Positions 4,168 through 33,196 of a stretch of 64,000 nt of DNA are shown here, in pieces; the first letter of the stretch is position 1; each line of letters starts with the position of its first letter. A model generated the notes under the pieces. It saw nothing but the letters and a program-made list of their open reading frames with translations. It was not told the DNA's origin and searched no databases. The translations under genes were made by a program, and so were the position numbers. The DNA is taken from positions 32,001-96,000 of the IMG/VR virus record IMGVR_UViG_2890725172_000001; one strand, given 5' to 3'. This DNA is from a virus (Duplodnaviria; Caudoviricetes).

Positions 4168-4246
4168 TCACCACGGCGAGCGGAAGGTCACCGGCGACGG
4201 CGGGATCACCGCTCAGGGAGGATCCGACCAGCATCGGTCGGGCGCA

Positions 4247-4280
4247 GGCCAGTACGGGCTGTGTCCGGCCGTTTTTGTTT
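4247..4280 (+). terminator. probable intrinsic terminator
   Basis: GGCC...GGCC imperfect stem followed by GTTTTTGTTT. Confidence 0.5.
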
Positions 4281-4350
4281 GGCCCCTCACGACGGCTCTC
4301 CACAGCGGGTGGGTGAGCTATACCTACACGAGTAAGAAAGGAGCCTACTC

Positions 4351-4731: not shown

Positions 4732-5383
4732 AGACGTCCTTCGCCGAATTCGAGCAGCCCTAGATCAGGCTAACCACCGGAGTACACCGCGCGGTCAGGC
4801 CATCTCGGCGCTGGCGGTGGCGACGAAGCTAGCACAGCGCCTCGGTCTCGACGATCCCCGCCAGGCCGTGGTCGACGTCGCCTGGTACGAGATCAGCACA
4901 CGCGGCCAGCATCACCCCGAACGCGGCGAGGCTCTGTGGGAGGTCAGTGAGACTCTCGGCTGCCGTGCCGTGCTACATGGTCACCGGCGCCGGGATCGAC
5001 CGGCGCACCTGGAGCTGATCGGCCAGCCGCCGACGCTGGAATGGCTGTGTGATCGACTGCTTCCCTCGGTCTCCTTTCAGATGGAGATGCGCTTGATGGA
5101 GGAGCTTCTCCAGCGTCGTGGACAATCCCGTACCGACCGTACCGATTTTGTACGAGGATGGTATGGCGGCTGGGGGAGCGAGGTCGCCGAAGTGCTCCGG
5201 CTACGGGGCAGGGCTCGCGAAGTGACCGAGCTTGTCGACGCCGAATTTCGCAGGCGCCACCCACAGCTGCACCCCAACAGAACGATCTATTTCTCCCCCC
5301 AAGGGCATGCCCTCGGCCGACAGGCCGGTCAGGTGGTGGACCTCGGGGATCGAGTTCTCATAGAAGGCGACAACAGTGAGTGA
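4721..5383 (+). CDS. DUF2786-like protein
   Basis: N-terminal VLRRIRAALDQA...A..L..R.GL helix-hairpin, F..GW and G..AG..VDLG motifs. Confidence 0.6.
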   Translation: MNREDVLRRIRAALDQANHRSTPRGQAISALAVATKLAQRLGLDDPRQAVVDVAWYEISTRGQHHPERGEALWEVSETLGCRAVLHGHRRRDRPAHLELIGQPPTLEWLCDRLLPSVSFQMEMRLMEELLQRRGQSRTDRTDFVRGWYGGWGSEVAEVLRLRGRAREVTELVDAEFRRRHPQLHPNRTIYFSPQGHALGRQAGQVVDLGDRVLIEGDNSE

Positions 5384-5780
5384 ATCGGAGCGGGAAAGGC
5401 CCGACGAATACAGGACGCCGATTGATGAGTTCATCGACAAAGCTCGTCGCGCTCAAGGGTTGAGCTGGAACGAACTCGTCGAAAAAGCAAGGATGACAAA
5501 ATCGGGCTTGATGTCCGTCCGCAATGGCGATACTCGATCCATTAGGCCGAAGACCTCTACTGGGCTCGACGATGCACTCGGCCTGCCGCGCGGAACAATC
5601 GAAAAGGTCTTTAAGGGAGACACTGCTATCGACATGAGTCCGAAGATCCTTACCGTACACTCCTCTGCGCGCATCAGCCCCGAAATGGCAATGCAGCTTC
5701 TAGAGCTCGCCAACAAGCACGGTCACGCTCTGATCATCAAGGACAACGCCAACACTGAGGAAGAGGGTCGAAATGAGTGA
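5376..5780 (+). CDS. XRE/Cro-C1 family HTH regulator
   Basis: ARRAQGLSWNELVEKARMTKSGLMSVRNG...LDDALGLPRGTI HTH pattern. Confidence 0.75.
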   Translation: MSESERERPDEYRTPIDEFIDKARRAQGLSWNELVEKARMTKSGLMSVRNGDTRSIRPKTSTGLDDALGLPRGTIEKVFKGDTAIDMSPKILTVHSSARISPEMAMQLLELANKHGHALIIKDNANTEEEGRNE

Positions 5781-9969: not shown

Positions 9970-10387
9970 TGCGCGGCAAGCGCCGAAGACTGCTGATGAC
10001 GTACGCCGGGTGCTGAACCAGCTTGTCGAGGATGCGCCGGAACGGACGGACTTCCGGCCGCCTGGCGCCTTGAGTGCTCGCTACGTAGACAACTCACGGC
10101 CTCACTCATTAGTGGGGCGCATCCTCCATTCGCTGGGTGTCTCGATCTCGACTCTGCGGCAGCTCGACCGCGAGCGAGAGGGCAACGACGTGACGCTGGT
10201 GGAGTCGAGGCACGCGATCAAGAACCACTTCACGCGGAGCGCCTGGCTGCTGCTGGTGCATCTCCAGCGGCTCAGCGACCAGGGCCTCAGGTGGGTCAAC
10301 ATCAAGGACGAGGCGCTCCAGCAGTTACCTGCCTCGGTCGGCGCCTCGACCATCGCGATCACGAGGCCGTGGCTGGTCGAGCCGTAG
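9944..10387 (+). CDS. hypothetical phage protein
   Basis: ORF with YV..RPHSLVGRIL..LGV and Q..SDQG..W motifs. Confidence 0.55.
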   Translation: MRFLVSAPSARQAPKTADDVRRVLNQLVEDAPERTDFRPPGALSARYVDNSRPHSLVGRILHSLGVSISTLRQLDREREGNDVTLVESRHAIKNHFTRSAWLLLVHLQRLSDQGLRWVNIKDEALQQLPASVGASTIAITRPWLVEP

Positions 10388-10414
10388 CAATCGTGATCTA
10401 AGGGACATACCCTG

Positions 10415-10448
10415 AGCGCCCCCTGACCATATATGGTCAGGGGGCGCT
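10415..10448. repeat. perfect 34-bp palindrome (terminator or recombinase site)
   Basis: AGCGCCCCCTGACCATATATGGTCAGGGGGCGCT followed by TGGTTTTT. Confidence 0.9.
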
Positions 10449-10479
10449 TGGTTTTTCACAGATGCTGAGGAGGCTTCTG

Positions 10480-11466
10480 ATGAGCGACCTTGCCGTTGTG
10501 ACGGAACCCGGGATCAGGATCACCGCGAGTCCGGCGCGGCTGTACCTCGCCAACCTGAACACCTACCAGTCCAGGCGGACCATGGAGGGGTGTCTTGAGG
10601 CGCTGGTGCGGATCTTCTCCGATGGCCAGCCGGTCGTGTACACGATCGATGACTTCCCGTGGGCTGATCTGGGTTACCAGGAGACCACGGCGGTGCGGGC
10701 TCGTCTGATCGAGCTCGGCCTGAGTCCCTCGACGGTGAACAAGTACCTGTCGGCACTGAGAGGAGTTTTGAAACAAGTCACGCTTCTCAATCCGAAGTCG
10801 CCTCAGGTCGCGGTGATCTCGGCGGCCCGTGAGGTCAAGAGCCTCCCGGTCAAGAAGCTCCCGGTCGGCCGTTACGTGCCGGTCGAGGAGATGGCGCTGC
10901 TGCTGGGGTCGTTCCTCGCTGAAAAGCGCCGGAAGGCTGTGCGAGATCTCGCTCTGGTCTCTCTGCTGTACGCGACAGGGGCGCGAGCAGCCGAGGGCGC
11001 CGGTATCGAGCTCGACGACTACGACCCTGCGACCGGCCACTTGCTGATTAATGGCAAGGGCGGCAAGGAGCGTGAGGTTCGTCTCCATCCGACCGCTATG
11101 GAGTACGTCGGCACGTGGCTGGAATTGCGCGGGGACATGCCTGGGGCATTGTTCCCGCAGGTGACCTACCACGGTGCCGTGGAGCTCTCCAGAGGCCGCG
11201 CTTTGGCATTCACGGGTCAGACGACCTGGGATATCGTGTCGAAGCGCAGCAGGCGTCTGGGCATCTACATGACGCCTCACGATATTCGGCGGACGCGGAT
11301 CAGCGACTTGTTCTTCCAGGGGGTTGACCCGGCGCTGATTATGAAGATCGTCGGTCACGACGACTTCAAGACGCTGATGGGTTACGACATGAGGCCGTTC
11401 GAAGCGGCGGCCGAGGCGATGGCGCAGCAGATCTGGGTCACGCCGATTCTGCCGATCGCGGCTTAG
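10480..11466 (+). CDS. tyrosine recombinase (XerD/Cre-like)
   Basis: R (TGARAAE), K (GKGGK), HxxR (HDIRR), GH and Y (GYD) catalytic residues; RBS GAGGAGG before ATG 10480. Confidence 0.9.
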   Translation: MSDLAVVTEPGIRITASPARLYLANLNTYQSRRTMEGCLEALVRIFSDGQPVVYTIDDFPWADLGYQETTAVRARLIELGLSPSTVNKYLSALRGVLKQVTLLNPKSPQVAVISAAREVKSLPVKKLPVGRYVPVEEMALLLGSFLAEKRRKAVRDLALVSLLYATGARAAEGAGIELDDYDPATGHLLINGKGGKEREVRLHPTAMEYVGTWLELRGDMPGALFPQVTYHGAVELSRGRALAFTGQTTWDIVSKRSRRLGIYMTPHDIRRTRISDLFFQGVDPALIMKIVGHDDFKTLMGYDMRPFEAAAEAMAQQIWVTPILPIAA

Positions 11467-11473
11467 GGGAGAA

Positions 11474-11626
11474 GTGGACAAGGAAGAAGGTGAGCCAGCC
11501 GTGGAACCGGATGATGAAGTCCACGGCTGTGGCCCGCAAGGCTGTCCAGAGTGCTACCGCAAATGGGAAGCATCCATCTACACGAAACGTGCAGTAAAGG
11601 AAAGCAGTACAGATGAAGGCTGTTAA
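11474..11626 (+). CDS. small putative Zn-binding protein (50 aa, not in ORF track)
   Basis: GTG after GGGGAG; HGCGPQGCPECY. Confidence 0.45.
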   Translation: MDKEEGEPAVEPDDEVHGCGPQGCPECYRKWEASIYTKRAVKESSTDEGC

Positions 11627-11650
11627 GGCGGCTTTAGCGATCTGAGACGC

Positions 11651-11705
11651 AAAAAGGCCCACTGTCTGACCCTTGTTTCGGCAAGGACGGACAGTGGGCC
11701 TTTTT
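11651..11705. terminator. bidirectional intrinsic terminator
   Basis: AAAAAGGCCCACTGTC...GACAGTGGGCCTTTTT between convergent genes. Confidence 0.85.
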
Positions 11706-11733
11706 GTGTTTCGGAGTCTTTCCGCGCGGAATT

Positions 11734-13197
11734 TCAGGCGGCGTATTTGATATCCTCGCCGACCACTTCGCCGTCGACGATACCGAGCTGTGCGGCCACG
11801 TCCTCGTCGCGGACGGGTTCGATCGCGCGGGTGGCGGCGGCGGCCTTCTCGCCGAACATACGGCTGAAGTAGCCTGCCTCGGCCGTGGCGCTCGGCATAT
11901 CGCCCTCGATGGTGATCTTGAAGGTGCTGCGGGCCTTGAGCATTCGCTGGAGCCGGTCGATCTCCGCGCTCACGTTCGGGTCGGGGTATCCGCCACCTGC
12001 GACTTCTTCGGTGAATCGGCCGTAGAGGACACGCTGGGTCTGTATTTCGATAAGGACGTCCTGGATCCGCGTGAGCTGTTCCTTGGTGCGCGCCGACACC
12101 GGGAGGTCGAAAGCGCATGTGCTGTCCGGCTCGTACTCGGGGCACTTCTCGCGCAGGAAGCAGGTGTCGCACTGGCGTTGCGATTCCGCTCGGTTGGAGA
12201 TGAGCGGAAGCGGCTGGAAGGTCTTGTTGCCGTCCTCGTCGAATGTCGAGATTTCCCGTGTTTCGACGCCGATTCCGGGGAGCAGACGGGTCTTCTCGCG
12301 ACGCTTGAGAGCGACGACATTTCCGTGTTCCGGCGCCGTCGTATCAAACGACTCAGAGGCGTTTTCCGTGTTAGCGCGTTGCGGGCTTTTCGGGGGTGTA
12401 TTTGATACACCGTTGATGCTGTTCATGTATTGGGTCCAGCTCCAGATGGAGAGCTTGAGGACCTCGGTCGTGTCGTCGGCGTTGATGAGCTCTGGGTCGA
12501 GGCCGAGGTCGAGGAAGAGGGCGCGATGGCGGGTTCGGGCCTGGTCCTTGTACTTGCGGGGGTAGCGCTTCAACTCTCCGGCGGCCCACACGATCGTGTC
12601 TCCGTACTGGCTGGGGCTTAGCCAGCTGGTCGAGGAGATCGACGACCAGGGGAGCGCGGCGATCGTCGTCGGCTTGGTCATGGCCAGGCCGTGAAGCTGT
12701 GTGTGGGCGGCGAGGGTGCGCAGCCTGTGCGTGATGTCCTGGCCATTGACGACCGTCGCGGTGACGCCGACACGCTGATGCTGCTCGGCGAGCTCGTAGA
12801 GCTTGTCCAGGCCGTCTTCGGGATGCCACACCGGCATGAACCGGTCCCCGGCGATCTGACGGAGGTTGGCGCTGGTTTGAGGCACGGAAGGAACGTCGAA
12901 ATCGACGACGATCTGTAGGTCGCCGACGTTCTTGGTGACGAAGTCGGTGTAGCCGATGGCGAGGTCGAGGACCTGCTGCTCGGTGTAGGCGTCGGGGTTC
13001 TTCCGGATGGTGTAGCCGCCGGAGTCGAGCAGGACCATGGTTTCGGCCGAGTATTTGTCAGCAACCAGCCAGGGCTTCTTGAAGGTGACGCGGCGGGCCA
13101 GGCCGAGGTAGCTGAGCGCCTGGTGGCGCACTCCCTGGTCAGTCAAGAGAGTGCGCCACGCGTTGAGTTCGGTGCCGCTGTAGTACAGGTCGGTCAC
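11734..13197 (-). CDS. TGT/DpdA-like (queuine tRNA-ribosyltransferase fold) protein with C-terminal Cys cluster
   Basis: LLDSGGYT, DFD, FMPVWH, LHGLA, SSTSW motifs; CDTC..C..C; GTG start overlaps upstream TGA. Confidence 0.7.
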   Translation of the reverse strand: MTDLYYSGTELNAWRTLLTDQGVRHQALSYLGLARRVTFKKPWLVADKYSAETMVLLDSGGYTIRKNPDAYTEQQVLDLAIGYTDFVTKNVGDLQIVVDFDVPSVPQTSANLRQIAGDRFMPVWHPEDGLDKLYELAEQHQRVGVTATVVNGQDITHRLRTLAAHTQLHGLAMTKPTTIAALPWSSISSTSWLSPSQYGDTIVWAAGELKRYPRKYKDQARTRHRALFLDLGLDPELINADDTTEVLKLSIWSWTQYMNSINGVSNTPPKSPQRANTENASESFDTTAPEHGNVVALKRREKTRLLPGIGVETREISTFDEDGNKTFQPLPLISNRAESQRQCDTCFLREKCPEYEPDSTCAFDLPVSARTKEQLTRIQDVLIEIQTQRVLYGRFTEEVAGGGYPDPNVSAEIDRLQRMLKARSTFKITIEGDMPSATAEAGYFSRMFGEKAAAATRAIEPVRDEDVAAQLGIVDGEVVGEDIKYAA

Positions 13198-14486
13198 GGA
13201 GTAGTGCCTCGGCGCTGCTTGATCCGGGCCGAATCTTCCTCGCGGGTCGGGATGCGCTCGCCTGGCAGACGGTCCATGCTGCGCTGGGCGACGGAGCGCT
13301 TGTCCCAAGACGCCCGCGCGGAAACGTGTTCGTGGTTCTCTGACGCGGGGACGTAGACGCCACGTGGCGAGTCGGTGGCTCGGGGGAGTGGACGGATGTT
13401 CCCTGCACGTCCCTGTGGCGCAGGCGCCGGGCTGGCGCTCTTCGCGGCAGCAGGCTGATTGACCTGTGGTGCCTGTACAGCTGCTGGGGTGGCGGCTGGC
13501 GCGGCCGAGGCGGCGACAGGCGGAGGCGAGGCGGACGGCGCGGCCTTGGCGACCGAGGGCTTCCGCTGGGCCCGCGCAGGTGCGGCCTTGGTCGTCGCTG
13601 GTGCGGCTGGCGGAGTGGCTGCGGGCGTATCGGTGTAGTTGGAGGGGTCGGTGAGGAAGGCCATCGCGCCCGCGATACCACTTGCTGGTGGGGTTTTCTT
13701 GGGTGTTCTGGCTGGTGTGGGGGCTGGTGCGGCTGTCTGAGGAACGGAGGCTGGCGTGGCGACATTGCCCGCACGAGCTCGGCTGGCTGGCGCCTTGGGG
13801 GCGGCGGCCGGTGGGTTGTACGGCTGGCCGTATGGCGAGTCGTACCAGTCGGGGAGGTGGGCGCCCGGCTTGGGTACGCTCATGCCGGAGTCGACCCGAT
13901 CCCAGTGGTGCCTAATCTTCTGCCGGTTGGCTTCGTCCGCCAGGCGCATGCTCTGCTGGTGTGTGTCGACCTCTCGCTGACGATCCTGGTTGTCCCAGGC
14001 CGTCAGGTTGCTCCGGCGGTAGTTCTCGCCGACGACCTTTCCTCGCGCGGCGCCTTCCTCTTTGGCGTACGCCGCCTTACCGGCGGCCGAGGCCGCGTCG
14101 TCGCCGATCCGCTTCTTGGCCGCCTCGTCGACATCGGACATGTCTCTGTGTAGAGCCAGCTTCACCTTCGAGGCCCTGGTGGCTTCGTTGATACGCTCGT
14201 CAGTCCGGGCTACCGCCTCTCGGCGGTTGGCGTTGTAGCGGGAGTCGTTGCGGTAGTCGGTGATGGCCTTCTGGCGGTCGTGCCGGGCGATCTCCTTACC
14301 GAGCTGTGTATCGGTGGCAACCTTGTGGCGGCGGTCCCACTCGGCGTTGCGCCGTTCGAACTCGGTGTTCCGCTGGCGGTTCTGAATGGTGGTGTCGACG
14401 ACGCGGGCCAACACGTCGAACATGCCGGTGCGGCTGCCGCTGCTTTGGTTGATCGCGGCAGAGATATTGCTGAACTGGATACTCAC
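13194..14486 (-). CDS. hypothetical protein, charged helical N-terminus and Ala/Pro-rich C-terminus
   Basis: GTGA overlaps at both ends; RBS GAGGA. Confidence 0.65.
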   Translation of the reverse strand: MSIQFSNISAAINQSSGSRTGMFDVLARVVDTTIQNRQRNTEFERRNAEWDRRHKVATDTQLGKEIARHDRQKAITDYRNDSRYNANRREAVARTDERINEATRASKVKLALHRDMSDVDEAAKKRIGDDAASAAGKAAYAKEEGAARGKVVGENYRRSNLTAWDNQDRQREVDTHQQSMRLADEANRQKIRHHWDRVDSGMSVPKPGAHLPDWYDSPYGQPYNPPAAAPKAPASRARAGNVATPASVPQTAAPAPTPARTPKKTPPASGIAGAMAFLTDPSNYTDTPAATPPAAPATTKAAPARAQRKPSVAKAAPSASPPPVAASAAPAATPAAVQAPQVNQPAAAKSASPAPAPQGRAGNIRPLPRATDSPRGVYVPASENHEHVSARASWDKRSVAQRSMDRLPGERIPTREEDSARIKQRRGTTP

Positions 14487-14938
14487 GAGTCCTCGATCTC
14501 GTCTGGCAAATGGGCAAGCGCACGGTCGTGATCGGCTTCGATCGCCGCGACGAGCTCGGCCCACTGAGGTGCTGGGGGGAGGGGTGTGTAGGCGCGGGGG
14601 TTGATCCACAGCAGGTGGGATTGGCCGATGCTGAACAGCGGATGGGCCAAGCTGGGATCCCCGATGACGACGAGGTCGAGGGCTCCGGTAGCGCGCAAGG
14701 TGCGGATCTGCTGAAGCCGGTCAATGTCCGGCGTGGGGTTGTAGGTGACGTTCGCGTGGCGGTGGAAGCCTTCACGAGTCAGCCAACTAGTCGTGAAACT
14801 CTTGTCGTGGTCGGCAAGGATGGTGACCCGGTAGTTGTTGACGAGGGCGTTGTAGAGGGCCTTGCCGTCGTCGTCGGGCAAGCCAGTGAGGGTGTCCCGG
14901 AGGATGCCGTCGAGGACGAGCGCGATGTGTCGGCTCAT
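14483..14938 (-). CDS. HAD-fold protein (motif I degenerate)
   Basis: IALVLDGIL resembles DxDGxL; T.SWL..EGF as in 5'-nucleotidase-like HADs. Confidence 0.55.
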   Translation of the reverse strand: MSRHIALVLDGILRDTLTGLPDDDGKALYNALVNNYRVTILADHDKSFTTSWLTREGFHRHANVTYNPTPDIDRLQQIRTLRATGALDLVVIGDPSLAHPLFSIGQSHLLWINPRAYTPLPPAPQWAELVAAIEADHDRALAHLPDEIEDS

Positions 14939-15918
14939 GTGGTTGCTCCGTGTGTGAGTTGGGCCGAAATCCGTGAAGCGGCGGCGTCCGGGAGGATGTG
15001 GCCGTAGACGTTGCGCTGGTACATGGCGTTCGCGTCGGCGCCGATTTTGGTGATCTTCTGGAGTGCGCCGACGACGCCGTTGGCCTTGTGGCTCTGCCAC
15101 CTGTAGTTGTGCCAGTCGCCGTAGCCCTGGCCGCCCTCGGCGAAGGCGTTGCGGCGGCCGAGATGGATACCCTCGTACAGGCTCTCGGCCTGGGCGACGG
15201 CGAGCTTGGCGATCGACAAGGCGTTGGTCCAGGCGCCGGAGCCGGGGACGGCTCGGCTGGCCTGAGTCGCGGCAGTGTTGTAGCGGTCGACGACGTCCTG
15301 GGCGAAGCGCTGCTCGCGGACGATCTGGGATCGCCAGTCGGCCGGGTAGAGCTTGGCCGGGTCGTGCGGCAACTTCGGCGGCCGAACGGTCCAGGTGTCA
15401 GAGATCAGGTCGTACGCGGCGTACGGGTGGATTGTTCGGATGTCAGTGGAGTTCTGGTTGAGGTAGTAAGTGACCTCGTAGGATTGGCCGTGGAAACGCG
15501 TCAGCGCGGTTTGCGGCCACAGGTGGTCGCGCAGCTCGGTGTTGATCACCGTGGCGATGTCGGCGTTGTCCATGTCGCTGAAGACCGGATTGAGCTTGCG
15601 CAGCTGAACCCAATCGGCGCCGAGCAGAACGTCGAGGTCACCGTTTCCACGGCTGGCCGACCATTGGTAGGTGATACCCGAACCGGCCAACCAGCAGCGA
15701 GCCCAGGAATGAGGGGCGTGCCAGCGGGTTGCCATGAAGGCGAAGAGAGTGCTAACCAGGTGTACCCGGACGTCACCCTTGAGCCTGTCACCGTTGAAGA
15801 GGTGAGGGTCAAGAGTTTTCTCAGGGGCCGAGAAATAGCCGGAAGCTCCCGTTTCGATTCGAATGGGGTCGTGCCCCATCGACTTGCGGAGATAGAAATT
15901 CGCGGCGCTTTCTGGCAT
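14935..15918 (-). CDS. Pol-beta superfamily nucleotidyltransferase
   Basis: LAGSG-x-DLDVL signature; AAYDL..D.W. Confidence 0.75.
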   Translation of the reverse strand: MPESAANFYLRKSMGHDPIRIETGASGYFSAPEKTLDPHLFNGDRLKGDVRVHLVSTLFAFMATRWHAPHSWARCWLAGSGITYQWSASRGNGDLDVLLGADWVQLRKLNPVFSDMDNADIATVINTELRDHLWPQTALTRFHGQSYEVTYYLNQNSTDIRTIHPYAAYDLISDTWTVRPPKLPHDPAKLYPADWRSQIVREQRFAQDVVDRYNTAATQASRAVPGSGAWTNALSIAKLAVAQAESLYEGIHLGRRNAFAEGGQGYGDWHNYRWQSHKANGVVGALQKITKIGADANAMYQRNVYGHILPDAAASRISAQLTHGATT

Positions 15919-15991
15919 AACTCCAGAATATCGTCGCTGTGATCAGTAATCAGAATGCTAGTGAATCAGCACCGGAAAGGGCTGTCAATAG

Positions 15992-16300
15992 ATGCTCACG
16001 ACCACCGTTATCGTCGCGCTAGTCGTCCTCTGGACCTCGATTGCGTTTTGGCACGCACACCTGAGCCTCGTGGATTCGAAGAAGCTACAAGCCGCAGACC
16101 CGTTAACTCTCTGCGATACCTGCCGAAAGCATCGACGGGACACATACCCCCTTACCAAGATGTCGCCGACATTCGTCGCCCTATGGTTTTATCTCACGAG
16201 CATCTTCGTATGGTGGGTCGATGCGGTCCCTAGGGCCATCGAATACATGCGAGGAATACCGCAACACTCATGTGGTCGTAGCAGGAGGAGGAGCTCATGA
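15992..16300 (+). CDS. putative membrane protein
   Basis: Two hydrophobic segments; CxxC. Confidence 0.55.
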   Translation: MLTTTVIVALVVLWTSIAFWHAHLSLVDSKKLQAADPLTLCDTCRKHRRDTYPLTKMSPTFVALWFYLTSIFVWWVDAVPRAIEYMRGIPQHSCGRSRRRSS

Positions 16301-16575
16301 AGATCAAACAGCGTAAGACCAAGCACCCTGCCGCCTATGACCTCGTCACTGAGGATGGGGATGTCTGGTACTGCTTTCAATTCGCCTACGAAGGTCTGAT
16401 CAATCGTGGTGACCGGAAGGACGTTCCCACCTGGTACTGGGATCACCGCCGTGAGATCGATCTGTATGACTTCTGGCATCTCATGCGTCCTGATGGCAAG
16501 TGGGAGAAGTCTTTCACGCACCTCTCCAAGGCGAAGCAGTACCTGGCCGAAAAACTAGGAGGACAAGCGAAGTGA
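16297..16575 (+). CDS. hypothetical protein
   Basis: RBS AGGAGGAG, ATGA overlap. Confidence 0.65.
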   Translation: MKIKQRKTKHPAAYDLVTEDGDVWYCFQFAYEGLINRGDRKDVPTWYWDHRREIDLYDFWHLMRPDGKWEKSFTHLSKAKQYLAEKLGGQAK

Positions 16576-17303
16576 CCACCGAAAAGCGAGCAGAAGAGAT
16601 TGGTAAGGTCCTCGCCGCCCACATCGAAAAGCTGTCGGCGGACCCGATGCAGCTGCTTTCGAAGCAGGATGCCCTCAGGAGGGTAGCCCGGAGGTACAAG
16701 GCGAGGATGCACGAAGTGGAGACCCCTCTCTACGACGCCGTCTACTACGGGCACCTGGTCATGCTTCAAAGTGCGGTGCAGGGGCGCCATCTCTCACGCC
16801 TCCGCCGCCACCCAAAGCCGGAAATCCATCGATTCCAGTGGGACGGCTTGGTGGACGACGAAAACGACGCTCCAAAAAACGCTGACTTCATCCTGGATAG
16901 CACCGGGTACATTCATCGGGGAAAGGAGACCCGACTAACTTATGATCTTCCAGACGGGCATGTTCATGCCGACGAAGACTCCGTGTGGGTCACCACTCCC
17001 GCAAGGTTCCAAGAGATCCTTCAGGCTCTCCGTGAGATGGGCTGGGATCGATCGGTCCGTCAGGGTGCTGAGCGGCTTACTCGCAATGCCTTGATCGAAG
17101 CCCTCAGCGACGACATCGATCAGATTGCCGGACTGCTGTGGCTGGCGGGCATCAAGAATCCGGGGTCGGTGTGGGTATGGGCCAACGAAAAGGGAGTTCA
17201 GGTGGATCTCAGCACGAAGGGTGAAGAGCAGATTCGCGCTCTCGCCGAGATCCTGCGTAAGGCCGGAATTCCGACCGACACCAACTGGCGTAAGTTCGTC
17301 TAG
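16572..17303 (+). CDS. hypothetical protein
   Basis: GTGA overlap, RBS GGAGG. Confidence 0.65.
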   Translation: MTTEKRAEEIGKVLAAHIEKLSADPMQLLSKQDALRRVARRYKARMHEVETPLYDAVYYGHLVMLQSAVQGRHLSRLRRHPKPEIHRFQWDGLVDDENDAPKNADFILDSTGYIHRGKETRLTYDLPDGHVHADEDSVWVTTPARFQEILQALREMGWDRSVRQGAERLTRNALIEALSDDIDQIAGLLWLAGIKNPGSVWVWANEKGVQVDLSTKGEEQIRALAEILRKAGIPTDTNWRKFV

Positions 17304-17359
17304 GAGGCCCGACATGGATGGGTTGGAACTTCCGCCGCTTGAAGGAAAGGAGAATCGAA

Positions 17360-17647
17360 ATGGATTTCACGGATCTTGAAACATCTCTCCAGATGGAGAA
17401 GGTCAAGTACACCAAGGAAGAACTCAGGGACGGCACTCAGCTCACGGTGCCCGCGCGAGACGACGTGGACATCATCATCACGGCGTACGACCGGCACGCA
17501 GAGGAAGGGCTGAAGTACCACATCGCCTGCTTCTGGGACGGCGGGGTGGAAGCGGTACCAGTAGCGATCATGAGCAATGTGAAGATGCTGGCCCGCTACG
17601 TGAGCAGCCTGATCGACGACGACACCCTCGACCACTGGATGGACTAG
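17360..17647 (+). CDS. hypothetical protein
   Basis: ATG 17360 after AAAGGAG. Confidence 0.6.
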   Translation: MDFTDLETSLQMEKVKYTKEELRDGTQLTVPARDDVDIIITAYDRHAEEGLKYHIACFWDGGVEAVPVAIMSNVKMLARYVSSLIDDDTLDHWMD

Positions 17648-17649
17648 CC

Positions 17650-17952
17650 ATGGAAACTGACTACAAACCCGGCGACGAGCCGATTCCCATCGGCTCTGTC
17701 GTCGAGTACTTCGGCAGTCCAAGCCCTGGTCGATATCGGGTCGACGACCACGCCGACCCGGCCAAGCATCCCTTCCCTCAAGTCTTCAGGGAAACGGACA
17801 TGGACAAGGCCTATCCGGACAGGACTGCCTACCATCTGTGGCCAGTTGGAGTACCACACAAGATAGGTAATCGACACCGCTCGGTTAGCTGGGTGCGGCG
17901 CACGTCCTTCACCGTGATCTCACGGCCGACAAAAAGCAGCAGCACTTCTTGA
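17650..17952 (+). CDS. hypothetical protein
   Basis: 100-aa ORF ending just before the terminator. Confidence 0.6.
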   Translation: METDYKPGDEPIPIGSVVEYFGSPSPGRYRVDDHADPAKHPFPQVFRETDMDKAYPDRTAYHLWPVGVPHKIGNRHRSVSWVRRTSFTVISRPTKSSSTS

Positions 17953-17957
17953 GATGT

Positions 17958-17999
17958 AAAAGCCCCCTCTCCAGCCAATTGGCTGGAGAGGGGGCTTTT
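17958..17999. terminator. bidirectional terminator, perfect 42-bp palindrome
   Basis: AAAAGCCCCCTCTCCAGCCAATTGGCTGGAGAGGGGGCTTTT between convergent units. Confidence 0.9.
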
Positions 18000-18093
18000 T
18001 GTGTTTCTGGCGTACGGCGCCAACGCAGTGATCGCCATCGTGCTGTACCTTTTGTCCGGCTCAAGGGACAGAAAGGTGAGTCGAACTATACAG

Positions 18094-18167
18094 TACCGAC
18101 GCAGGGACTTGAACCCTGAACCTCCCGATTTTGAGTCGGGCACCTCTGCCAGTTGGGCTACGTCGGC
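18094..18167 (-). tRNA. tRNA-Leu(CAA), short variable loop
   Basis: Cloverleaf, loop CT CAA AA, T-loop TTCAAGT. Confidence 0.85.
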
Positions 18168-18171
18168 CGGG

Positions 18172-18243
18172 CTCCCCATGGAGGGTTCGAACCTCCATTA
18201 CCAGAGCCAAAATCTGGCGTCCTGCCGATTGGACGAACGGGGA
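18172..18243 (-). tRNA. tRNA-Gln(TTG)
   Basis: Cloverleaf, loop TT TTG GC. Confidence 0.9.
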
Positions 18244-18244
18244 A

Positions 18245-18320
18245 TGGCTGACCATCCTGGACTCGAACCAGGGATGGGCGGATTAACAGTCCGCTGCTCT
18301 GCCAGCTGAGCTAATGGTCA
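18245..18320 (-). tRNA. tRNA-Asn(GTT)
   Basis: Loop CT GTT AA; encoded CCA. Confidence 0.9.
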
Positions 18321-18325
18321 TTGCG

Positions 18326-18399
18326 TGCCGGTGCGAGGACTCGAACCCCGACTGGCCCGATCCTAAGTCAGGTGCCTCTTCCAATTGGGCTACACCGGC
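18326..18399 (-). tRNA. tRNA-Leu(TAG), short variable loop
   Basis: Loop CT TAG GA. Confidence 0.85.
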
Positions 18400-18400
18400 G

Positions 18401-18475
18401 TGCCGACACAGGGACTCGAACCCCGGACCCGCGCGATTAAAAGTCGGCTGCTCTAACCAGCTGAGCTATGTCGGC
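18401..18475 (-). tRNA. tRNA-Lys(TTT)
   Basis: Loop CT TTT AA; bulged anticodon stem. Confidence 0.9.
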
Positions 18476-18593
18476 AAATTTTGTGGCGCAGAAACCTATT
18501 GAGAATGCTTCCCCTCAGGGGGCCTCGACACGATTTCTACCTACTGCGCATCAGTTAAAGGTGTCATAAGCCTACTCAAGTAAGTCGAACACG

Positions 18594-18665
18594 TACCGAC
18601 GCGGGGATTCGAACCCCGATTTTCCTGACCCCATGCCAGGCGCCTCTACCATTGGGCACATCGGA
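18594..18665 (-). tRNA. atypical tRNA, apparent TGG anticodon on a Leu-like body
   Basis: Good T arm and acceptor stem, loop CA TGG GG (no U33), U1:U72 mismatch. Confidence 0.6.
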
Positions 18666-18666
18666 G

Positions 18667-18742
18667 TACCGCCAGCGGGAATCGAACCCGCGCCTTCGAG
18701 ATTGAAAGTCTCGCGACCCTAACCAACAGAGTCCATGGCGGC
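18667..18742 (-). tRNA. tRNA-Glu(TTC)
   Basis: Loop CT TTC AA. Confidence 0.85.
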
Positions 18743-18743
18743 T

Positions 18744-18819
18744 TGGAGCCGTAGGGGGGATTCGAACCCCCAACATGCTGCTTGGAAGGCAGCCACTCTA
18801 CCAATTGAGTTACTACAGC
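18744..18819 (-). tRNA. tRNA-Gly(TCC)
   Basis: Loop CT TCC AA; U73-CCA. Confidence 0.9.
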
Positions 18820-18820
18820 T

Positions 18821-18897
18821 TGGAGCCGGGACGGGGATTTGAACCCCGAACCTGCCGCTTACAAGGCGGCTGCTCTATCCAGTTGAGCTATCCCGGC
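18821..18897 (-). tRNA. tRNA-Thr(TGT)
   Basis: Loop CT TGT AA; CCA. Confidence 0.9.
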
Positions 18898-18898
18898 G

Positions 18899-18971
18899 TG
18901 CCAACGCGAGGAATCGAACCTCGGACCTGTCCCTTTTCAGGGGACCGCTCTTCCATCTGAGCTACGATGAC
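18899..18971 (-). tRNA. tRNA-Phe(GAA)
   Basis: Loop CT GAA AA. Confidence 0.9.
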
Positions 18972-18972
18972 G

Positions 18973-19045
18973 CACTAGCGACGGGACTTGAACCCTCATC
19001 AATCTCATCGACAATGAGCCTCCCAGCCAATTGGGCGACGCTAGC
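18973..19045 (-). tRNA. tRNA-Asp(GTC)
   Basis: Loop TT GTC GA; G73. Confidence 0.8.
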
Positions 19046-19046
19046 T

Positions 19047-19124
19047 TGGTTGCGGGTGCCGGATTTGAACCGGCGATCCCGGACTTATGAGGCCCGTGAG
19101 GACTCCGAACTCCTCTAACCCGCA
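19047..19124 (-). tRNA. tRNA-Met(CAT), initiator-like body
   Basis: Loop CT CAT AA; CCA. Confidence 0.85.
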
Positions 19125-19125
19125 G

Positions 19126-19198
19126 TGTGAACGAGCGGAATCGAACCGCCTCAAAGGGAGTCACATTCCCTTGTGCTAACCATTACACCACATTCACC
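19126..19198 (-). tRNA. tRNA-His(GTG)
   Basis: Loop AT GTG AC; G-1 present. Confidence 0.85.
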
Positions 19199-19199
19199 A

Positions 19200-19275
19200 T
19201 GGATAGTCGGCGGGATTCGAACCCGCGTTTCCGCTTTTGCAGAGCGGCGTTCTTGGCCTCTGAACTAGCGACTAC
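19200..19275 (-). tRNA. tRNA-Cys(GCA)
   Basis: Loop CT GCA AA; U-CCA end; irregular acceptor stem. Confidence 0.8.
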
Positions 19276-19322
19276 GTAAAACTTAGCAGGCGTCGATCAT
19301 CCGACGCATCTGATTTACGGCG

Positions 19323-19336
19323 AGGTATCGATACCT
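19323..19336. promoter_or_regulatory. palindromic motif AGGTATCGATACCT (copy 1)
   Basis: Also at 40383-40396 (exact) and 47284-47297 (1 mismatch). Confidence 0.6.
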
Positions 19337-19667
19337 AGTCGACGACGTACCAGTCCTCTTCCAGGAGGTCGGTCTGGGAGACGACCCAGGGGACGAACGA
19401 ACCGTCCGCCGTCCGCATCATGAGGTAGGACCTGAAGACACAGACGGTGCCCTCGGCGAGGCCTGTGGCCTCGGCCGTGTTCTTGTTGATGGCGATGCCG
19501 TCCGGGTAGCCGTTCTGGTGGACGATGAACATGTTCACGCCGTTCCAGCCCTCGCGGGCCAGCTTCTCGCCGTCCTTGAGGTACTGAAGAGCTTCGCTGA
19601 AGGTCAGCTGGATTCGATCGTCGCAGCCGCAGGAGCAGGCTTCTTGGATCCACTCGTCGTCTTCCAT
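19335..19667 (-). CDS. DUF2829 / Tad2-like anti-defence sponge protein
   Basis: F.EAL..LK.G.KLAR.GWNG...PW..SQTDLL.EDW signature. Confidence 0.8.
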   Translation of the reverse strand: MEDDEWIQEACSCGCDDRIQLTFSEALQYLKDGEKLAREGWNGVNMFIVHQNGYPDGIAINKNTAEATGLAEGTVCVFRSYLMMRTADGSFVPWVVSQTDLLEEDWYVVD

Positions 19668-20005
19668 CAGGAGCCCCTCAGGCCGGTCGCGGCGAGGATC
19701 TGGGCGTTGCGCTGCTGCTCGGCGGCGGCCTGGGCGGCGCGGATCATGATCGCATGGGTTGTCATGGCGATCTCCTGGGCTTGGATCCGGCCGATGCCGA
19801 TGTGCATGGAGGACAGGACCTCTTCTGGGGTGACGTCGCGCTCGGTGATGATGGCGTTGGAGTCGAGCAGGCGCCGGTCGGAAGTGGTGACGGCGTGACC
19901 GTCGTGGTCGATGTAGGTGACGTAGGCGGTTCTGGCGACGACGGGACCGTGGTCGCCGGTGCCGAGGTCGCTCTGACCGAGGTCAGTTGCGCCGGAGGCG
20001 TTCAA
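19667..20005 (-). CDS. hypothetical protein
   Basis: TGATG coupling to next gene. Confidence 0.6.
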   Translation of the reverse strand: MNASGATDLGQSDLGTGDHGPVVARTAYVTYIDHDGHAVTTSDRRLLDSNAIITERDVTPEEVLSSMHIGIGRIQAQEIAMTTHAIMIRAAQAAAEQQRNAQILAATGLRGS

Positions 20006-20015
20006 GTTCGTGTTC

Positions 20016-20537
20016 CTAGTTGGTGTAGTCGTATGTGCCAGCTGCGGCGCGTTGGCGCTGCATGACGATCGAGTGGTAGGGGCAGAAATCGCACAGGAAG
20101 GTGTTGGAGACTGGCCGGGTCGATAGCCCGGCTTCCTTGCGCAATTCCTTGGTGTCGGGGATGAGCTTCTTGCGGTCGGATCGGTAATCGCCGCAGTTCT
20201 TTGTCCGGCCGTGGTATTTCCAGCAGGAGTGGGCGTCGGCCGAGAATGTGTTGCGGGTGTCGTAGAACTTCGTGCCGAGTCCGTCGCTACCGCCCGCTGC
20301 CATTACCTTGTTGGCCTCGTCGAGAATGGCCTTGCGGTAGGTGGGGTTTTCCCACTCGCTCTTGGCGATGATCCCGAGCGGCAGGGCGGCGATGTGTGTC
20401 TGTCCGCTCTCGGTGGTGTGCCGGGAGGAGATCAGGTATTCGAGTGTGGTGTCGTATTCGGCGGGACCGTCGTAAAAGGGGAGTTCATCGACGGTCCCGC
20501 AGGTGCCACAGAAAAGAAGCCGGATTTTCTCGCTCAT
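20016..20537 (-). CDS. Cys-rich putative Zn-binding protein
   Basis: CGTC...H; C..H....C; CDFC. Confidence 0.65.
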   Translation of the reverse strand: MSEKIRLLFCGTCGTVDELPFYDGPAEYDTTLEYLISSRHTTESGQTHIAALPLGIIAKSEWENPTYRKAILDEANKVMAAGGSDGLGTKFYDTRNTFSADAHSCWKYHGRTKNCGDYRSDRKKLIPDTKELRKEAGLSTRPVSNTFLCDFCPYHSIVMQRQRAAAGTYDYTN

Positions 20538-21343
20538 AGGGTGAGAGCCGCCCAGGTGATGATTCCGGCTTCGCCGTCCGCGACGATTCCGGCCTTCGTC
20601 TGGAAGTCGATGACGGCCTGCTTGGTCTTGGCTCCGTAGATGCCGTCGACGGTGAGCTTGGCTCCGGCGGTGTTCAGCAGCTGCTGGAGCTGCTTGATCT
20701 TGAGCTGGTCGTCGGGGTTGGTGCCGGAGTGGTTGCGCGGGTCGTCGGACTTGATGCCGAACCAGTGGTCGGGCGCCAGCGGGAACTTCGGCCGGGTGCT
20801 GCCGGGCTTGGTCGGCTTGGATGGCGTGGTCGGTGCCGGGGTCGCCTTGGTGGCCCAGCGTGGGTAGCCGAAGCCGACGAAGACGTTGTCGTACCTGGCG
20901 CAGACGGTGACCTTGTTGGAGATGTTGCCGTCAATGGTGACGACGCGGCCTTGCTTGTCGCGGCCGAGGACGACGCCGACGTGGTCGACTCCCGCGACGG
21001 TGTCGGTGCGCTGGTAGTCGACGAAGGCGATGCTGCCCCGGGTGGCGGTGTTGCCGAGGCGGCCGTTGCTGGCGAACCATCGGGCGTGGGATGGCGTCCA
21101 GGCGAAGCAGCCGACCTGTGCGAGCGCGGCTTCGGCGGCGTCCAGGCCGCCCTTCTTGCGTCCGGCTTCCCAGGCGGCCCAGCCGGTGAACACGTCGCAC
21201 CAGGCGGCCTTGTCGAATCCGCTGTCCTTGACGCGGTCGCCGTACCAGATGCCGTAGGTGCTGGCGCCGTTCTTTTCGCCCTTGCCTTCTTGTGAGAGAA
21301 GGACGGCGATGTATTCCTCGGCGGTGATGATCAGGTCGCTCAC
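20534..21343 (-). CDS. endolysin (CHAP amidase plus peptidoglycan-binding domain)
   Basis: AWCD.F, DHVGVV, TIDGN; C-terminal DGIYGAKT..AV..FQ...DG..G..TW. Confidence 0.85.
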   Translation of the reverse strand: MSDLIITAEEYIAVLLSQEGKGEKNGASTYGIWYGDRVKDSGFDKAAWCDVFTGWAAWEAGRKKGGLDAAEAALAQVGCFAWTPSHARWFASNGRLGNTATRGSIAFVDYQRTDTVAGVDHVGVVLGRDKQGRVVTIDGNISNKVTVCARYDNVFVGFGYPRWATKATPAPTTPSKPTKPGSTRPKFPLAPDHWFGIKSDDPRNHSGTNPDDQLKIKQLQQLLNTAGAKLTVDGIYGAKTKQAVIDFQTKAGIVADGEAGIITWAALTL

Positions 21344-21456
21344 CGGATCTCCTCGAACTCCGGGAGCTCTACGAGCTCGACCTCGGCGAGGCTGGCGGGC
21401 TGCGGACCGTCTTCGGGGCGGATGGCTCCGCCTACGGGTGGGGTGGGGTAGCTCAC
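21340..21456 (-). CDS. small hypothetical protein (38 aa)
   Basis: GTG after AGGA; GTGA overlap with endolysin. Confidence 0.35.
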   Translation of the reverse strand: MSYPTPPVGGAIRPEDGPQPASLAEVELVELPEFEEIR

Positions 21457-21474
21457 GTGCGAAGTCCTGATGGG

Positions 21475-21630
21475 TTAGCGGAGGGATTCGGCGCGGCGGG
21501 CGGCGCGGAATTCGGGCGCGGTGGGGGCCGAGACGTTTCCGCCGCGATCTGGGGTGTCTGTGCGGACGCCCTTTTCGGTCATTCCCTTGCGGAGGTCCGC
21601 GTTCATTGACCGTGGGGCTGGTAGAGCCAT
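21475..21630 (-). CDS. small hypothetical protein
   Basis: ATG after AGGAG. Confidence 0.55.
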   Translation of the reverse strand: MALPAPRSMNADLRKGMTEKGVRTDTPDRGGNVSAPTAPEFRAARRAESLR

Positions 21631-21643
21631 GGGGGGTCTCCTG

Positions 21644-22147
21644 TTAGCGCCAGGAAGGCAGTAGCTTGCGTGCCTGCCCGGCTGCGATATTGAGGGGTTC
21701 GCTCGATCGGACGCCGTATTTGACGGCGAGGTCGGTGAGCTCTTCAGGGGACATGTCGATGTTCTTGCCGTCATTCACCAGACGTTCGGCCGGAATTCCC
21801 TTGGGCGCGAAGCGCTTCCCTTGGGCTTGGAGCCGAAGTGAGGTCTGCGGGTTGAAATCTTCAGGCCATGAATAGTCCTCGGATGGGACTCGTTCGCCGA
21901 CGTGGACTCCACGCTGGTAGCTGCGCTTGTTGAGGCTTTGCTTGACCGCGTTGAGCAGCCGGTCTTCGCGCCGCGATCGGACGGTGCCGAGATATCCGTC
22001 TGGGTATTCGGCGTATGGCGCCGCGTTTCCTGTGCGGCGGGCGTCCAGTTGGTTTCGCCACGGCACGACCGGGACATTGGGGGAGCTGCCGATCGTGCCG
22101 GGCTGGCCTTGGGGGGCGTTGTAGGACCAGTCGCTGTATCCGGGCAT
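21644..22147 (-). CDS. conserved hypothetical protein
   Basis: EYPDGYLGTVRSRREDRLL...YQRGVH.GER motif. Confidence 0.65.
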   Translation of the reverse strand: MPGYSDWSYNAPQGQPGTIGSSPNVPVVPWRNQLDARRTGNAAPYAEYPDGYLGTVRSRREDRLLNAVKQSLNKRSYQRGVHVGERVPSEDYSWPEDFNPQTSLRLQAQGKRFAPKGIPAERLVNDGKNIDMSPEELTDLAVKYGVRSSEPLNIAAGQARKLLPSWR

Positions 22148-22153
22148 GACGTC

Positions 22154-22372
22154 CTACAGGGAGACGGTGGTGGGGTTCCGTCGCGGTTCGTTGTCGACGG
22201 CGACCGGTTGGCGGTCTTGGGTTGCTCGGTTGGCCAGGGCTCCGCCGACAAAGGCTCCGTAACGGCCTGCTGTCCCTGCGCTCGCGGCGCTGGCGCCCAG
22301 CTCGGTGGCAGCGCCGCGAGCGACGGCGCTACCGGCGGCGCGGGCGGCGACGCCCAGCAGGAGGGGGAGCAT
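22154..22372 (-). CDS. small Ala/Gly-rich protein
   Basis: TAATG coupling; RBS GGAGG. Confidence 0.55.
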   Translation of the reverse strand: MLPLLLGVAARAAGSAVARGAATELGASAASAGTAGRYGAFVGGALANRATQDRQPVAVDNEPRRNPTTVSL

Positions 22373-22683
22373 TAGTTGCCTCCGCCGAGCCGACGCCGGG
22401 CGTCGAGGAACTCGCCGGTTCCCTTGGCGCTGGGGACGCGCCGGGTGTTGCGGAGATTGGCCGAGGCGGCTGGGTCCTCCATGGGGGCCCATCGCGAGCT
22501 CGGGGCGTAGCAGGCGCCCAGGCGCTCGTTGACGTTCCGCTTGTGGCCGCCGGTGAGGTCGACCATGGCCGAGCCCTTAGGCCCGCCCTTGGGGCGAGAG
22601 GCAGTCGAGGGCTTGCCGGAGGTGTTGGTGGCCGTCGCGTGAGCGGTGCCGACCTTCGGGAACGTGGTTGTGGTCTTGTCCAC
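22372..22683 (-). CDS. hypothetical basic protein
   Basis: RBS AAAGGA. Confidence 0.6.
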   Translation of the reverse strand: MDKTTTTFPKVGTAHATATNTSGKPSTASRPKGGPKGSAMVDLTGGHKRNVNERLGACYAPSSRWAPMEDPAASANLRNTRRVPSAKGTGEFLDARRRLGGGN

Positions 22684-22733
22684 TGGGTTTCCTTTATTGT
22701 GGCCGGGGCCGAATTAAGTCCAGTGGCGCGTGT

Positions 22734-23015
22734 TTAGTAAAAGACTTGGAAGACGAGGCCGGTTACTTCGCCGTCGTCCATTTGGATGATGGTGAATGCC
22801 GGTCGGAAGGTGAGCGAAAGTCCTCGTGGGCCGACGTAGCCTTGTGCGATGGCCATGGCCTTGCAGGTCTGGTTGACCGCTCCGGCGCCGATGGCGCGGA
22901 TGAAGACTTCCTTGCCCTCGTAGATGGCGTGGCTGATGGCCGATGCCAGCTTTGGTGCGTCGCTTTTGCCTGAGACCTTCAAAAGCATGGTGTTTGAGGC
23001 GGTCTCGGTATCCAA
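22734..23015 (-). CDS. spoVS: SpoVS-family protein
   Basis: LKVS.KS...LASAI...IRAIGAGAVNQ.CKA.AIA.G.V.P.G..L...PAF. Confidence 0.9.
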   Translation of the reverse strand: MDTETASNTMLLKVSGKSDAPKLASAISHAIYEGKEVFIRAIGAGAVNQTCKAMAIAQGYVGPRGLSLTFRPAFTIIQMDDGEVTGLVFQVFY

Positions 23016-33116: not shown

Positions 33117-33193
33117 CCGGGTGTAGCGTAATTTGGTTGAGCGCGCCTGCTTTGGGAGCAGGAGATTTGCAGGTTCAAATCCTGCCGTCCGGA
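33117..33193 (+). tRNA. tRNA-Pro(TGG)
   Basis: C1:G72, A73, loop TT TGG GA, T-loop TTCAAAT. Confidence 0.9.
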
Positions 33194-33196
33194 CGG

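Follow-up and report, generated by a model that had tools for sequence, protein, structure and literature searches.

The DNA analysed here, called the window throughout, is a 64,000-nucleotide stretch of a tailed phage (positions 32,001 to 96,000 of IMG/VR record IMGVR_UViG_2890725172_000001), part of a 110,447-bp phage contig within an 8.3-Mb actinomycete assembly. The module in question comprises four minus-strand genes, termed A to D (Table 1), which encode a nucleotidyltransferase-like protein (A), a HAD-like protein (B), a partly low-complexity protein (C) and a protein with a barrel of the tRNA-guanine transglycosylase (TGT) and DpdA type (D). An earlier reading of the same DNA from its letters alone (the original prediction) had described a translationally coupled operon closed by a terminator, and both features were borne out. 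A and B overlap by ATGA (14938-14935), B and C by GTGA (14486-14483) and C and D by GTGA (13197-13194), and the start of D at 13197 agrees with the N-termini of its homologues (MxLYFxGxE). The terminator lies between the D and integrase genes as a hairpin with a folding free energy (dG) of -36.3 kcal/mol (z -5.9 versus shuffles), followed by TTTTT; a consensus promoter scan of the locus found no sigma-70-type site and missed this long terminator, which was confirmed by folding. The protein comparisons set out below suggest that the module descends from a two-domain DpdA and no longer performs the original reaction, and that it probably does a different job on DNA.

Table 1. Coordinates of the module, of landmarks within gene D and of flanking features (positions in the window)
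Feature	Position	Strand	Size	Description
Gene A	15918-14935	minus	327 amino acids	Pol-beta-superfamily nucleotidyltransferase-like, C-terminal helical bundle; motif encoded at about 15475-15684
Gene B	14938-14483	minus	151 amino acids	HAD fold without nucleophile; motif I ALVLDGIL at about 14900-14923
Gene C	14486-13194	minus	430 amino acids	Facultative, lineage-specific insert between B and D
Gene D	13197-11734	minus	487 amino acids	DpdA/TGT-type barrel, linker and Cys/helical domain
Gene D, N-terminal domain	13197-12412	minus	residues 1-262	DpdA/TGT-type TIM barrel
Gene D, linker and C-terminal domain	12411-11734	minus	residues 263-487	Linker, beta-hairpin, Cys cluster, helical region
Gene D, D58-S-G	13024-13026			Landmark
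Gene D, SISSTSW	12622-12642			Landmark
Gene D, Ser188 (TCC)	12634-12636			Landmark
Gene D, D200	12598-12600			Landmark
Gene D, Cys cluster	12115-12171			Landmark
Hairpin	11701-11655		47 nt	A/T runs on both sides; folding versus shuffles
Tyrosine integrase gene	10462-11466	plus		Convergent with gene D
Palindrome, possible bidirectional terminator	17958-17999
tRNA array	18093-19275	minus	14 genes

Database searches with the four proteins were largely silent. Pfam, NCBIfam and PADLOC searches returned nothing meaningful for any of them, and D has no Pfam match at E<=1, PF01702 (TGT) included. D is the only one of the four with a match in PHROGs, aligning end to end with phrog_887 ('queuine tRNA-ribosyltransferase', E 8e-63). 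An AlphaFold2 model of D based on 32 homologues has a predicted local distance difference test score (pLDDT) above 95 across residues 1-262, and the best structural matches of this barrel are TGTs, with a Foldseek E of 1e-5 and VIA-align Z scores of 16.0-16.7 (root-mean-square deviation 3.4-3.8 A over about 250-255 residues), in agreement with the TGT/DpdA fold originally proposed. In profile comparisons by hhalign, D was paired with gp021 of Bacillus phage BCD7 (99.8%, E 1e-28, 258 columns), with the barrel protein of Bacteroides phage BS162P1 (97.8%) and with DpdA of Enterobacteria phage 9g (97.2%, E 4e-11), whereas in a single-sequence hhalign comparison with E. coli TGT only the DSGG motif aligned, at a probability of 0.6%. 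Hidden Markov model (HMM) searches against PDB sequences with D and with A gave chance matches only, and no PDB TGT was found by the D-family HMM. D is thus truly homologous to the phage DpdAs and shares their barrel, and because it is these proteins that profile comparison matches, the homology is with the DNA enzymes. The family is large, with 474 clusters (50% identity) at E<=1e-30 and 1871 at E<=1e-10.

The reference used for the active site is the DpdA of Salmonella Montevideo (PDB 7UI4). Its general acid/base is Asp95 and its covalent nucleophile is Asp256, at the end of beta8, while base recognition falls to Asp130 and His181. Activity is abolished by D95A and by D256A, and Asp95, Asp130 and Asp256 have been reported as invariant across TGTs and DpdAs (PMC10164549). 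Asp58 (of the DSG motif), Asp101 and His169 of D align with Asp95, Asp130 and His181. As the original prediction had remarked, D keeps DSGG and reads SISSTSW where an Asp is usual: hhalign places the nucleophile opposite Ser188 in S186-I-S-S-T-S-W192, where the corresponding stretches read SCDSSSW in 9g, SVDSVTW in BS162P1, TGDSTTW in BCD7 and SVDSSGW in the Rosebush-type phage Calamitous. A census of alignment columns, covering 258 distinct relatives of D obtained from two database searches and aligned to the family profile, extends the substitution to the whole family: Ser occupies the nucleophile column in 100 relatives, Gly in 53, Ala in 48, Thr in 21 and His in 13, with other residues in the remainder and Asp in a single one of 257.

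Other parts of the site are kept. W192 is present in 257 of the 258 relatives, D/E200 in 252, G199 in 249, E99 in 226, D101 in 220, Y/F198 in 211 and H169 in 209. E/D99 and D101 are carried by strand beta4, H169-G170 come next, and Y198-G-D200 lies past SISSTSW. The column of the DSG Asp (D58) is looser, with D in 193 relatives, E in 19 and other residues in about 22. In 7UI4, Phe265 is a solvent-exposed residue nine positions past the nucleophile, in the helix that opens Ins8; it is needed after DNA binding and has been proposed to stabilize the flipped base (PMC10164549). Residue 198 of D aligns with this base-flipping wedge, and the D model has the same order of elements as 7UI4, namely beta8, a two-turn helix, a hairpin and a helical subdomain. 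The barrel zinc site CxCx2Cx22H, which pins Ins8 to the barrel, is missing from D, there being no Cys in residues 200-262. Strong constraint remains on the pocket, on the wedge aromatic, on the partner domain described below and, in most members, on the acid/base Asp.

The best-conserved acidic residue of the family, D/E200, lies two residues past the wedge-aligned aromatic, and the position is non-acidic in three DpdAs that bear the nucleophile, namely those of 9g (Ala), BS162P1 (Thr) and Calamitous (Arg). A 'hopping' of the nucleophile, by which D/E200 would substitute for the lost Asp, was considered and set aside as a direct explanation, and is retained below only as part of a rival reading: BCD7 gp021 holds both the canonical Asp and a Glu at position 200 (YGE), so the carboxylate predates the loss of the Asp and is not a simple replacement.

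The C-terminal part of D consists of a disordered linker, a beta-hairpin, the four-Cys cluster C343-x2-C346-x5-C352-x8-C361 and a helical region with the motif GGY.DPN.S.E.DRL. The cluster is found in at least 246 of the approximately 248 relatives that cover the region, and a search for short stand-alone homologues of the domain found two fragments only. By hhalign, the C-terminus of D matches (99.4%) a separate protein encoded beside the BS162P1 DpdA barrel, and the CxxC-x5-C-x8-C cluster also occurs at the C-terminus of BCD7 gp021. The gene contexts of these two relatives are informative. In BCD7, the fused 757-aa gp021 comes after queD, queE, queC and folE; in BS162P1, the barrel and the Cys/helical domain are encoded by two separate genes (00087 and 00088) that lie between queC-like and queE-like genes, while queD is found at another place in that genome. 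The relatives that retain the Asp thus sit inside queC/D/E clusters. Since the domains are fused in the one and encoded by adjacent separate genes in the other, in both cases within que clusters and with the Asp in place, the two-domain architecture appears to be ancestral and to belong to genuine deazaguanine systems. The original prediction was therefore right about the Cys cluster and helical domain, but not in calling them extra. In BS162P1, the split DpdA pair and its queC-like and queE-like neighbours (3851-5483 of the fetched locus) are all annotated as hypothetical proteins.

Several D homologues carry insertions. The metagenomic homologue P0049 (814 aa) contains a LAGLIDADG intein of about 316 aa directly before the fourth Cys of the cluster (splice junctions ESGAN/CFHGDT and LTGN/CAYDIPI), and P0263, P0265, P0310 and P0377 (about 850 aa each) match the D profile in two separated stretches. 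Inteins favour such sites in proteins that matter to the phage, and no earlier description of an intein within a DpdA-like protein appears to exist. Another homologue, P0124 (620 aa), has an Endonuclease VII (PF02945) domain within the linker between the barrel and the Cys domain, which probably reflects either the insertion of a homing endonuclease or the merging of gene calls.

A functional DpdA also depends on a supply of 7-deazaguanine, and the original prediction had pointed out that no que genes lie in the window. Pfam models for TGT, QueC and QueD (PTPS) have no match in the 8.3-Mb assembly, and QueC and QueD are likewise absent from four complete genomes of module-bearing phages (BRock, GiJojo and two from IMG/VR), QueE and FolE not having been searched for in either case. 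The assembly is 100% complete by marker genes, and the same Pfam models detect 10-14 of 14 control genomes; the search applied to BRock and GiJojo found both QueC and QueD in BS162P1. Neither the phage nor its host is therefore predicted to be able to make preQ0, and the Asp and the pathway appear to have been lost together in the actinophage clade. 'Singleton' DpdAs in phages whose hosts are without queuosine genes were noted by Hutinet et al. (2019), who asked whether their function had diverged. Canonical DpdA chemistry (double displacement through an Asp-ribosyl intermediate, with insertion of preQ0) can be regarded as excluded on two independent lines of sequence evidence, the missing nucleophile and the missing replacement base.

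Gene B shows a parallel loss. It matches no HAD Pfam model or other family; the Atlas model of B, itself a prediction, superposes on PNKP-type and NIF-type HAD phosphatase domains with TM scores of 0.61-0.66 over about 117 residues. Its motif I, ALVLDGIL, has Val8 where the nucleophile Asp is expected, as the original prediction had pointed out in noting VLDG in place of DxDG, and among 84 homologues the column holds Val in 39, Thr in 20, Ala in 10 and Ser, Phe or Pro in the rest, with Asp in none. The second motif-I position is Asp, Glu or Asn, and most of the same set retain the acidic E92 and D94 of motif IV. In the product of gene C, the N-terminal half is charged and prone to form helices, and the C-terminal half is rich in Pro and Ala and of low complexity; the GC content at third codon positions in the N-terminal half (0.85) favours its being coding.

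Gene A is the component for which activity is most readily proposed. The intact GS...DLD motif of the original prediction was confirmed, with G79-S80, D94-L95-D96 and E148 invariant in 30 homologues (hG[GS]-x13-DxD plus a third-strand Glu). The AlphaFold2 model has a pLDDT of 90, and its core (residues about 40-175) matches 1ylq, 1no5, the MNT antitoxin, cGAS/CdnE and tRNA-processing nucleotidyltransferases with Z scores of only 5-6.6 and Foldseek E above 0.05. No Pfam model matches any of the 30 members, and the A of the window has no PHROG, NCBIfam or PADLOC family; for its N-terminal extension and its C-terminal four-helix bundle, which carries the invariant motif IHxGR...GYxDxxNxRWQxxK, no counterpart was identified. 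From these residues A is taken to be an active Pol-beta-type nucleotidyltransferase, and it would be the only component of the module with a complete catalytic centre. In BCD7, gp020 and a nearby nucleotidyltransferase, gp015, were considered as relatives of A and have no detectable relation to it.

The coherence of the module was examined by a neighbourhood census, in which profile HMMs were run on six-frame open reading frames (ORFs) of 97 D-seeded loci (15 genome contigs, 80 IMG/VR contigs, BRock and GiJojo). Of these 97 loci, 95 have B upstream of D in the same orientation, and 76 have A there. Seeded from A instead, 78 of 80 loci contain both B and D, and the remaining two are on truncated contigs; on every contig that extends far enough, A is accompanied by B and D. 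In 19 of the 97 loci (e.g. L061, L070, L042 and L005), B-D occurs without an A homologue in the 6-8 kb fetched upstream. Between B and D there is no gene in 37 of 95 loci and an insert of more than 700 bp in 48, the inserts forming several unrelated groups, and jackhmmer and blastp found no homologue of C in the 97 loci. C thus stands outside the conserved unit, as a facultative, non-homologous insert, and the census counts define the unit as B-D, usually preceded by A, with a variable slot at the position of C and with B as a near-obligate partner of D. The co-conservation of the genes proposed for checking in the original prediction accordingly holds for A, B and D but not for C.

The A-B-(x)-D order is shared by BRock-like Streptomyces phages, by Streptomyces, Nonomuraea and Terracoccus prophages and by about 100 IMG/VR contigs, a recurrence far beyond chance. 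In BRock and GiJojo the module comes after the endolysin; it ends beside a large serine recombinase in a Streptomyces diastatochromogenes chromosome and beside the tyrosine integrase in the window. BRock is described as having no lysogeny genes (PMC7453282). A literature search found no paper on the function of the D family or on its partners. The census and the B-D core are new in the present analysis, as are the conserved carboxylate at position 200, the decay of DSG, the family-wide column statistics and the intein.

The best reading of these results is a DNA-directed, non-canonical modification or masking module, in which D and B would form a DNA-binding, base-flipping recognition unit without covalent chemistry, A would be the likely source of the remaining chemistry, and the purpose would be protection of the phage DNA; a probability of about 0.4 is assigned to it. 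In this proposal, D in complex with B would bind double-stranded DNA and flip a guanine (or other base) into its pocket. Being unable to form a covalent ribosyl-enzyme intermediate, D would then act as a sequence- or base-recognition subunit, while A would supply the chemistry, with the exposed nucleotide or a bound ligand as acceptor of the nucleotidyl group, and masking alone would operate in phages that lack A. The outcome would be phage DNA shielded from host restriction or defence, a role that fits where the module is found: in lytic BRock-like phages it closes the late/lysis operon, and in prophages it adjoins the integrase. The activity, the complex and the choice of DNA over RNA as target are put forward as a proposal drawn from sequence comparison. 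A more specific form, in which the disarmed DpdA and pseudo-HAD flip guanine and the Pol-beta-type nucleotidyltransferase adds a nucleotide or nucleotide-derived group to the base or sugar, would amount to a new kind of phage DNA modification and is considered distinctly unlikely. Of the broader idea in the original prediction, a modification or signalling complex with partly repurposed active sites, the altered sites of B and D proved to be family-wide, and no pointer to signalling was found.

Several observations weigh against the recognition-unit proposal. A cannot be the sole source of chemistry, given the 19 loci with B-D alone, unless another enzyme replaces it there, and the nucleotidyltransferase fold of A rests on motifs and middling structural scores (Z 5-6.6). 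The DSG Asp is replaced by His, Tyr, Asn or Gly in more divergent members, which argues for binding rather than catalysis. Conversely, the near-invariant E99, D101 and D/E200 could form a new catalytic centre, and this is the core of an alternative in which D is still an enzyme: these residues, on the catalytic face of the barrel, would replace the Asp, and D would act as a hydrolytic DNA glycosylase or as an exchanger of a base made independently of the queuosine pathway, with B and A processing or supplying substrates. The frequencies of the three residues in the column census and the non-acidic position 200 of the Asp-bearing DpdAs of 9g, BS162P1 and Calamitous suit this alternative, as does the structural likeness of DpdA to the metal-dependent TIM-barrel nuclease Endo IV noted in the DpdA paper (PMC10164549). 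It is nevertheless held to be unlikely: the canonical Asp and Glu200 coexist in BCD7 gp021, no base-synthesis genes are linked to the module, putting an ordinary base in place of G would cause mutations, and abasic sites would damage the DNA of the phage itself. At the opposite extreme, B and D may both be pseudoenzyme binders, their dead sites serving as ligand or nucleic-acid pockets of a host-defence decoy or inhibitor, a prophage exclusion factor or a regulator, with A as an accessory effector. The family-wide loss of both nucleophiles, the further decay of DSG in divergent members, the moron-like position beside the integrase in prophages and the retention of the module with or without A are all consistent with such a role, which is equally doubtful given the lack of a PADLOC match, the maintenance of the module past the lysis genes of virulent BRock-type phages and a conservation of pocket and wedge residues that exceeds what a decoy needs.

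The recognition-unit proposal also has to be set against targets other than phage DNA bases. D could bind the G34-U35 anticodon loops of tRNAs (Asn, Asp, His and Tyr), with A as a tRNA nucleotidyltransferase and B as a PNKP-like end binder, in repair or protection against anticodon nucleases. Fifteen tRNA genes lie in the window, among them G34 species for Asn, Asp and His, the three to which the original prediction had drawn attention; GiJojo has about 30 tRNAs together with a Ro-like protein, an RNA ligase and a phosphoesterase; the fold of B is similar to that of the PNKP phosphatase domain, and A bears a weak resemblance to tRNA-processing nucleotidyltransferases. The three tRNAs are indeed present, but they make a weak argument because D is related to the DNA-acting DpdA, as its 97-99.8% profile matches to phage DpdAs attest against the lone DSGG alignment with E. 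coli TGT. Since, moreover, the nearest relatives with the Asp belong to DNA-modification clusters, D retains the Ins8 elements typical of DpdA together with the wedge aromatic, and no PUA or other tRNA-binding domain was found, a tRNA-directed role is very unlikely. Slighter still is the chance that D is a small-terminase-like DNA-recognition subunit for packaging by virtue of its C-terminal helical domain. This notion draws on the single annotated terminase gene of GiJojo, which has no annotated small subunit, and on a weak neighbour of the domain in an Atlas feature search, annotated as the T5 small terminase (score 0.76, below the lead threshold). Searches of Pfam and PHROGs at E<=1 assigned the domain to no terminase or other family, the D gene of GiJojo lies about 75 kb from its terminase gene, and the same domain partners an Asp-bearing DpdA inside the que clusters of BS162P1 and BCD7, all of which makes a packaging role highly improbable.

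The surroundings of the module add some observations of their own. Judged by its composition and ORFs, the sequence directly before A looks like a plus-strand block of putative genes of only about 2 kb (15955-17952), and not the 16-kb block from which the operon had been thought to diverge; it is ended by the palindrome listed in Table 1. This palindrome, a perfect 19-bp stem (AAAAGCCCCC…GGGGGCTTTT), separates the end of the plus-strand block from the 3' end of the tRNA array and could act as a terminator for transcription from both directions. The array, which includes tRNA-Asn(GTT), tRNA-Asp(GTC) and tRNA-His(GTG), is nearly free of spacers, with a single gap of 118 nt (18476-18593), and a fifteenth tRNA gene, Pro(TGG), lies on the plus strand at 33117-33194, so that Pro(TGG) is present twice. 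In GiJojo (10028-22989), the tRNA genes are interspersed with genes for a Ro-like RNA-binding protein, an RNA ligase, a phosphoesterase, a CobT-like protein and MazG, which has the look of a toolkit for RNA repair and tRNAs. Megablast of the operon against phage records gave no match. The phage forms a separate contig in the bacterial assembly, encodes a tyrosine recombinase and has no match at the nucleotide level in the phage collection, and its proteins are only about 40% identical to those of the virulent BRock-like phages. It may be a prophage kept outside the chromosome, like a plasmid, or else a lytic phage that is carried along.

These results bear on annotation practice. DpdA is currently treated as a signature protein for 7-deazaguanine in DNA (PMC10516641). 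Members of the D family are labelled 'queuine tRNA-ribosyltransferase' or 'DpdA-like transglycosylase' in databases, a label that is probably functionally wrong for this family, because nucleophile and substrate supply are both gone. This cautions against predicting deazaguanine modification in Streptomyces phages by annotation alone. Two apparently disabled enzymes and one apparently intact nucleotidyltransferase have been kept together across lytic and temperate actinophages, and with BRock, GiJojo, LuckySocke and Alone3 as isolated phages, the module offers a culturable test case for new DNA chemistry or for the reuse of pseudoenzymes.

Among known systems, A has the signature of MNT, KNTase/ANT, cGAS/CdnE and the CCA-adding enzymes and a modelled core that aligns to such folds at only Z 5-6.6, but matches no family model. 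B shares the predicted fold and part of the motif-IV acidic residues with PNKP/NIF-type HAD phosphatases, and differs from them in a hydrophobic or small residue at the DxDG nucleophile position in 84 of 84 homologues. TGTs (bacterial TGT, archaeal ArcTGT and eukaryotic QTRT1) are the best structural matches of D at Z 16-16.7, yet have only 8-14% identity to it, and D is without their nucleophile, zinc site, N-terminal lid and PUA domain. With the phage DpdA1 proteins (9g, CAjan and Iggy) and the bacterial DpdA (7UI4), D shares the barrel, the DSG Asp, the base-pocket Asp and His and the wedge aromatic; by contrast, it lacks the Asp256 nucleophile and the barrel CxCx2Cx22H, has a different four-Cys cluster in a separate domain, and was found with neither a preQ0 source nor a DpdB/ParB-like partner. 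The closest counterparts are BCD7 gp021 and the split form of BS162P1, which share with D the barrel, the C-terminal Cys/helical domain and the DSG, E/D-x-D, HG and [ST]-x-S-T-[ST]-W motifs, with YGE in addition in BCD7. These two have kept the Asp and their folE/queC/queD/queE neighbours, whereas the actinophage clade has Ser, Gly or Ala at the nucleophile position, is without que genes and has acquired B and A.

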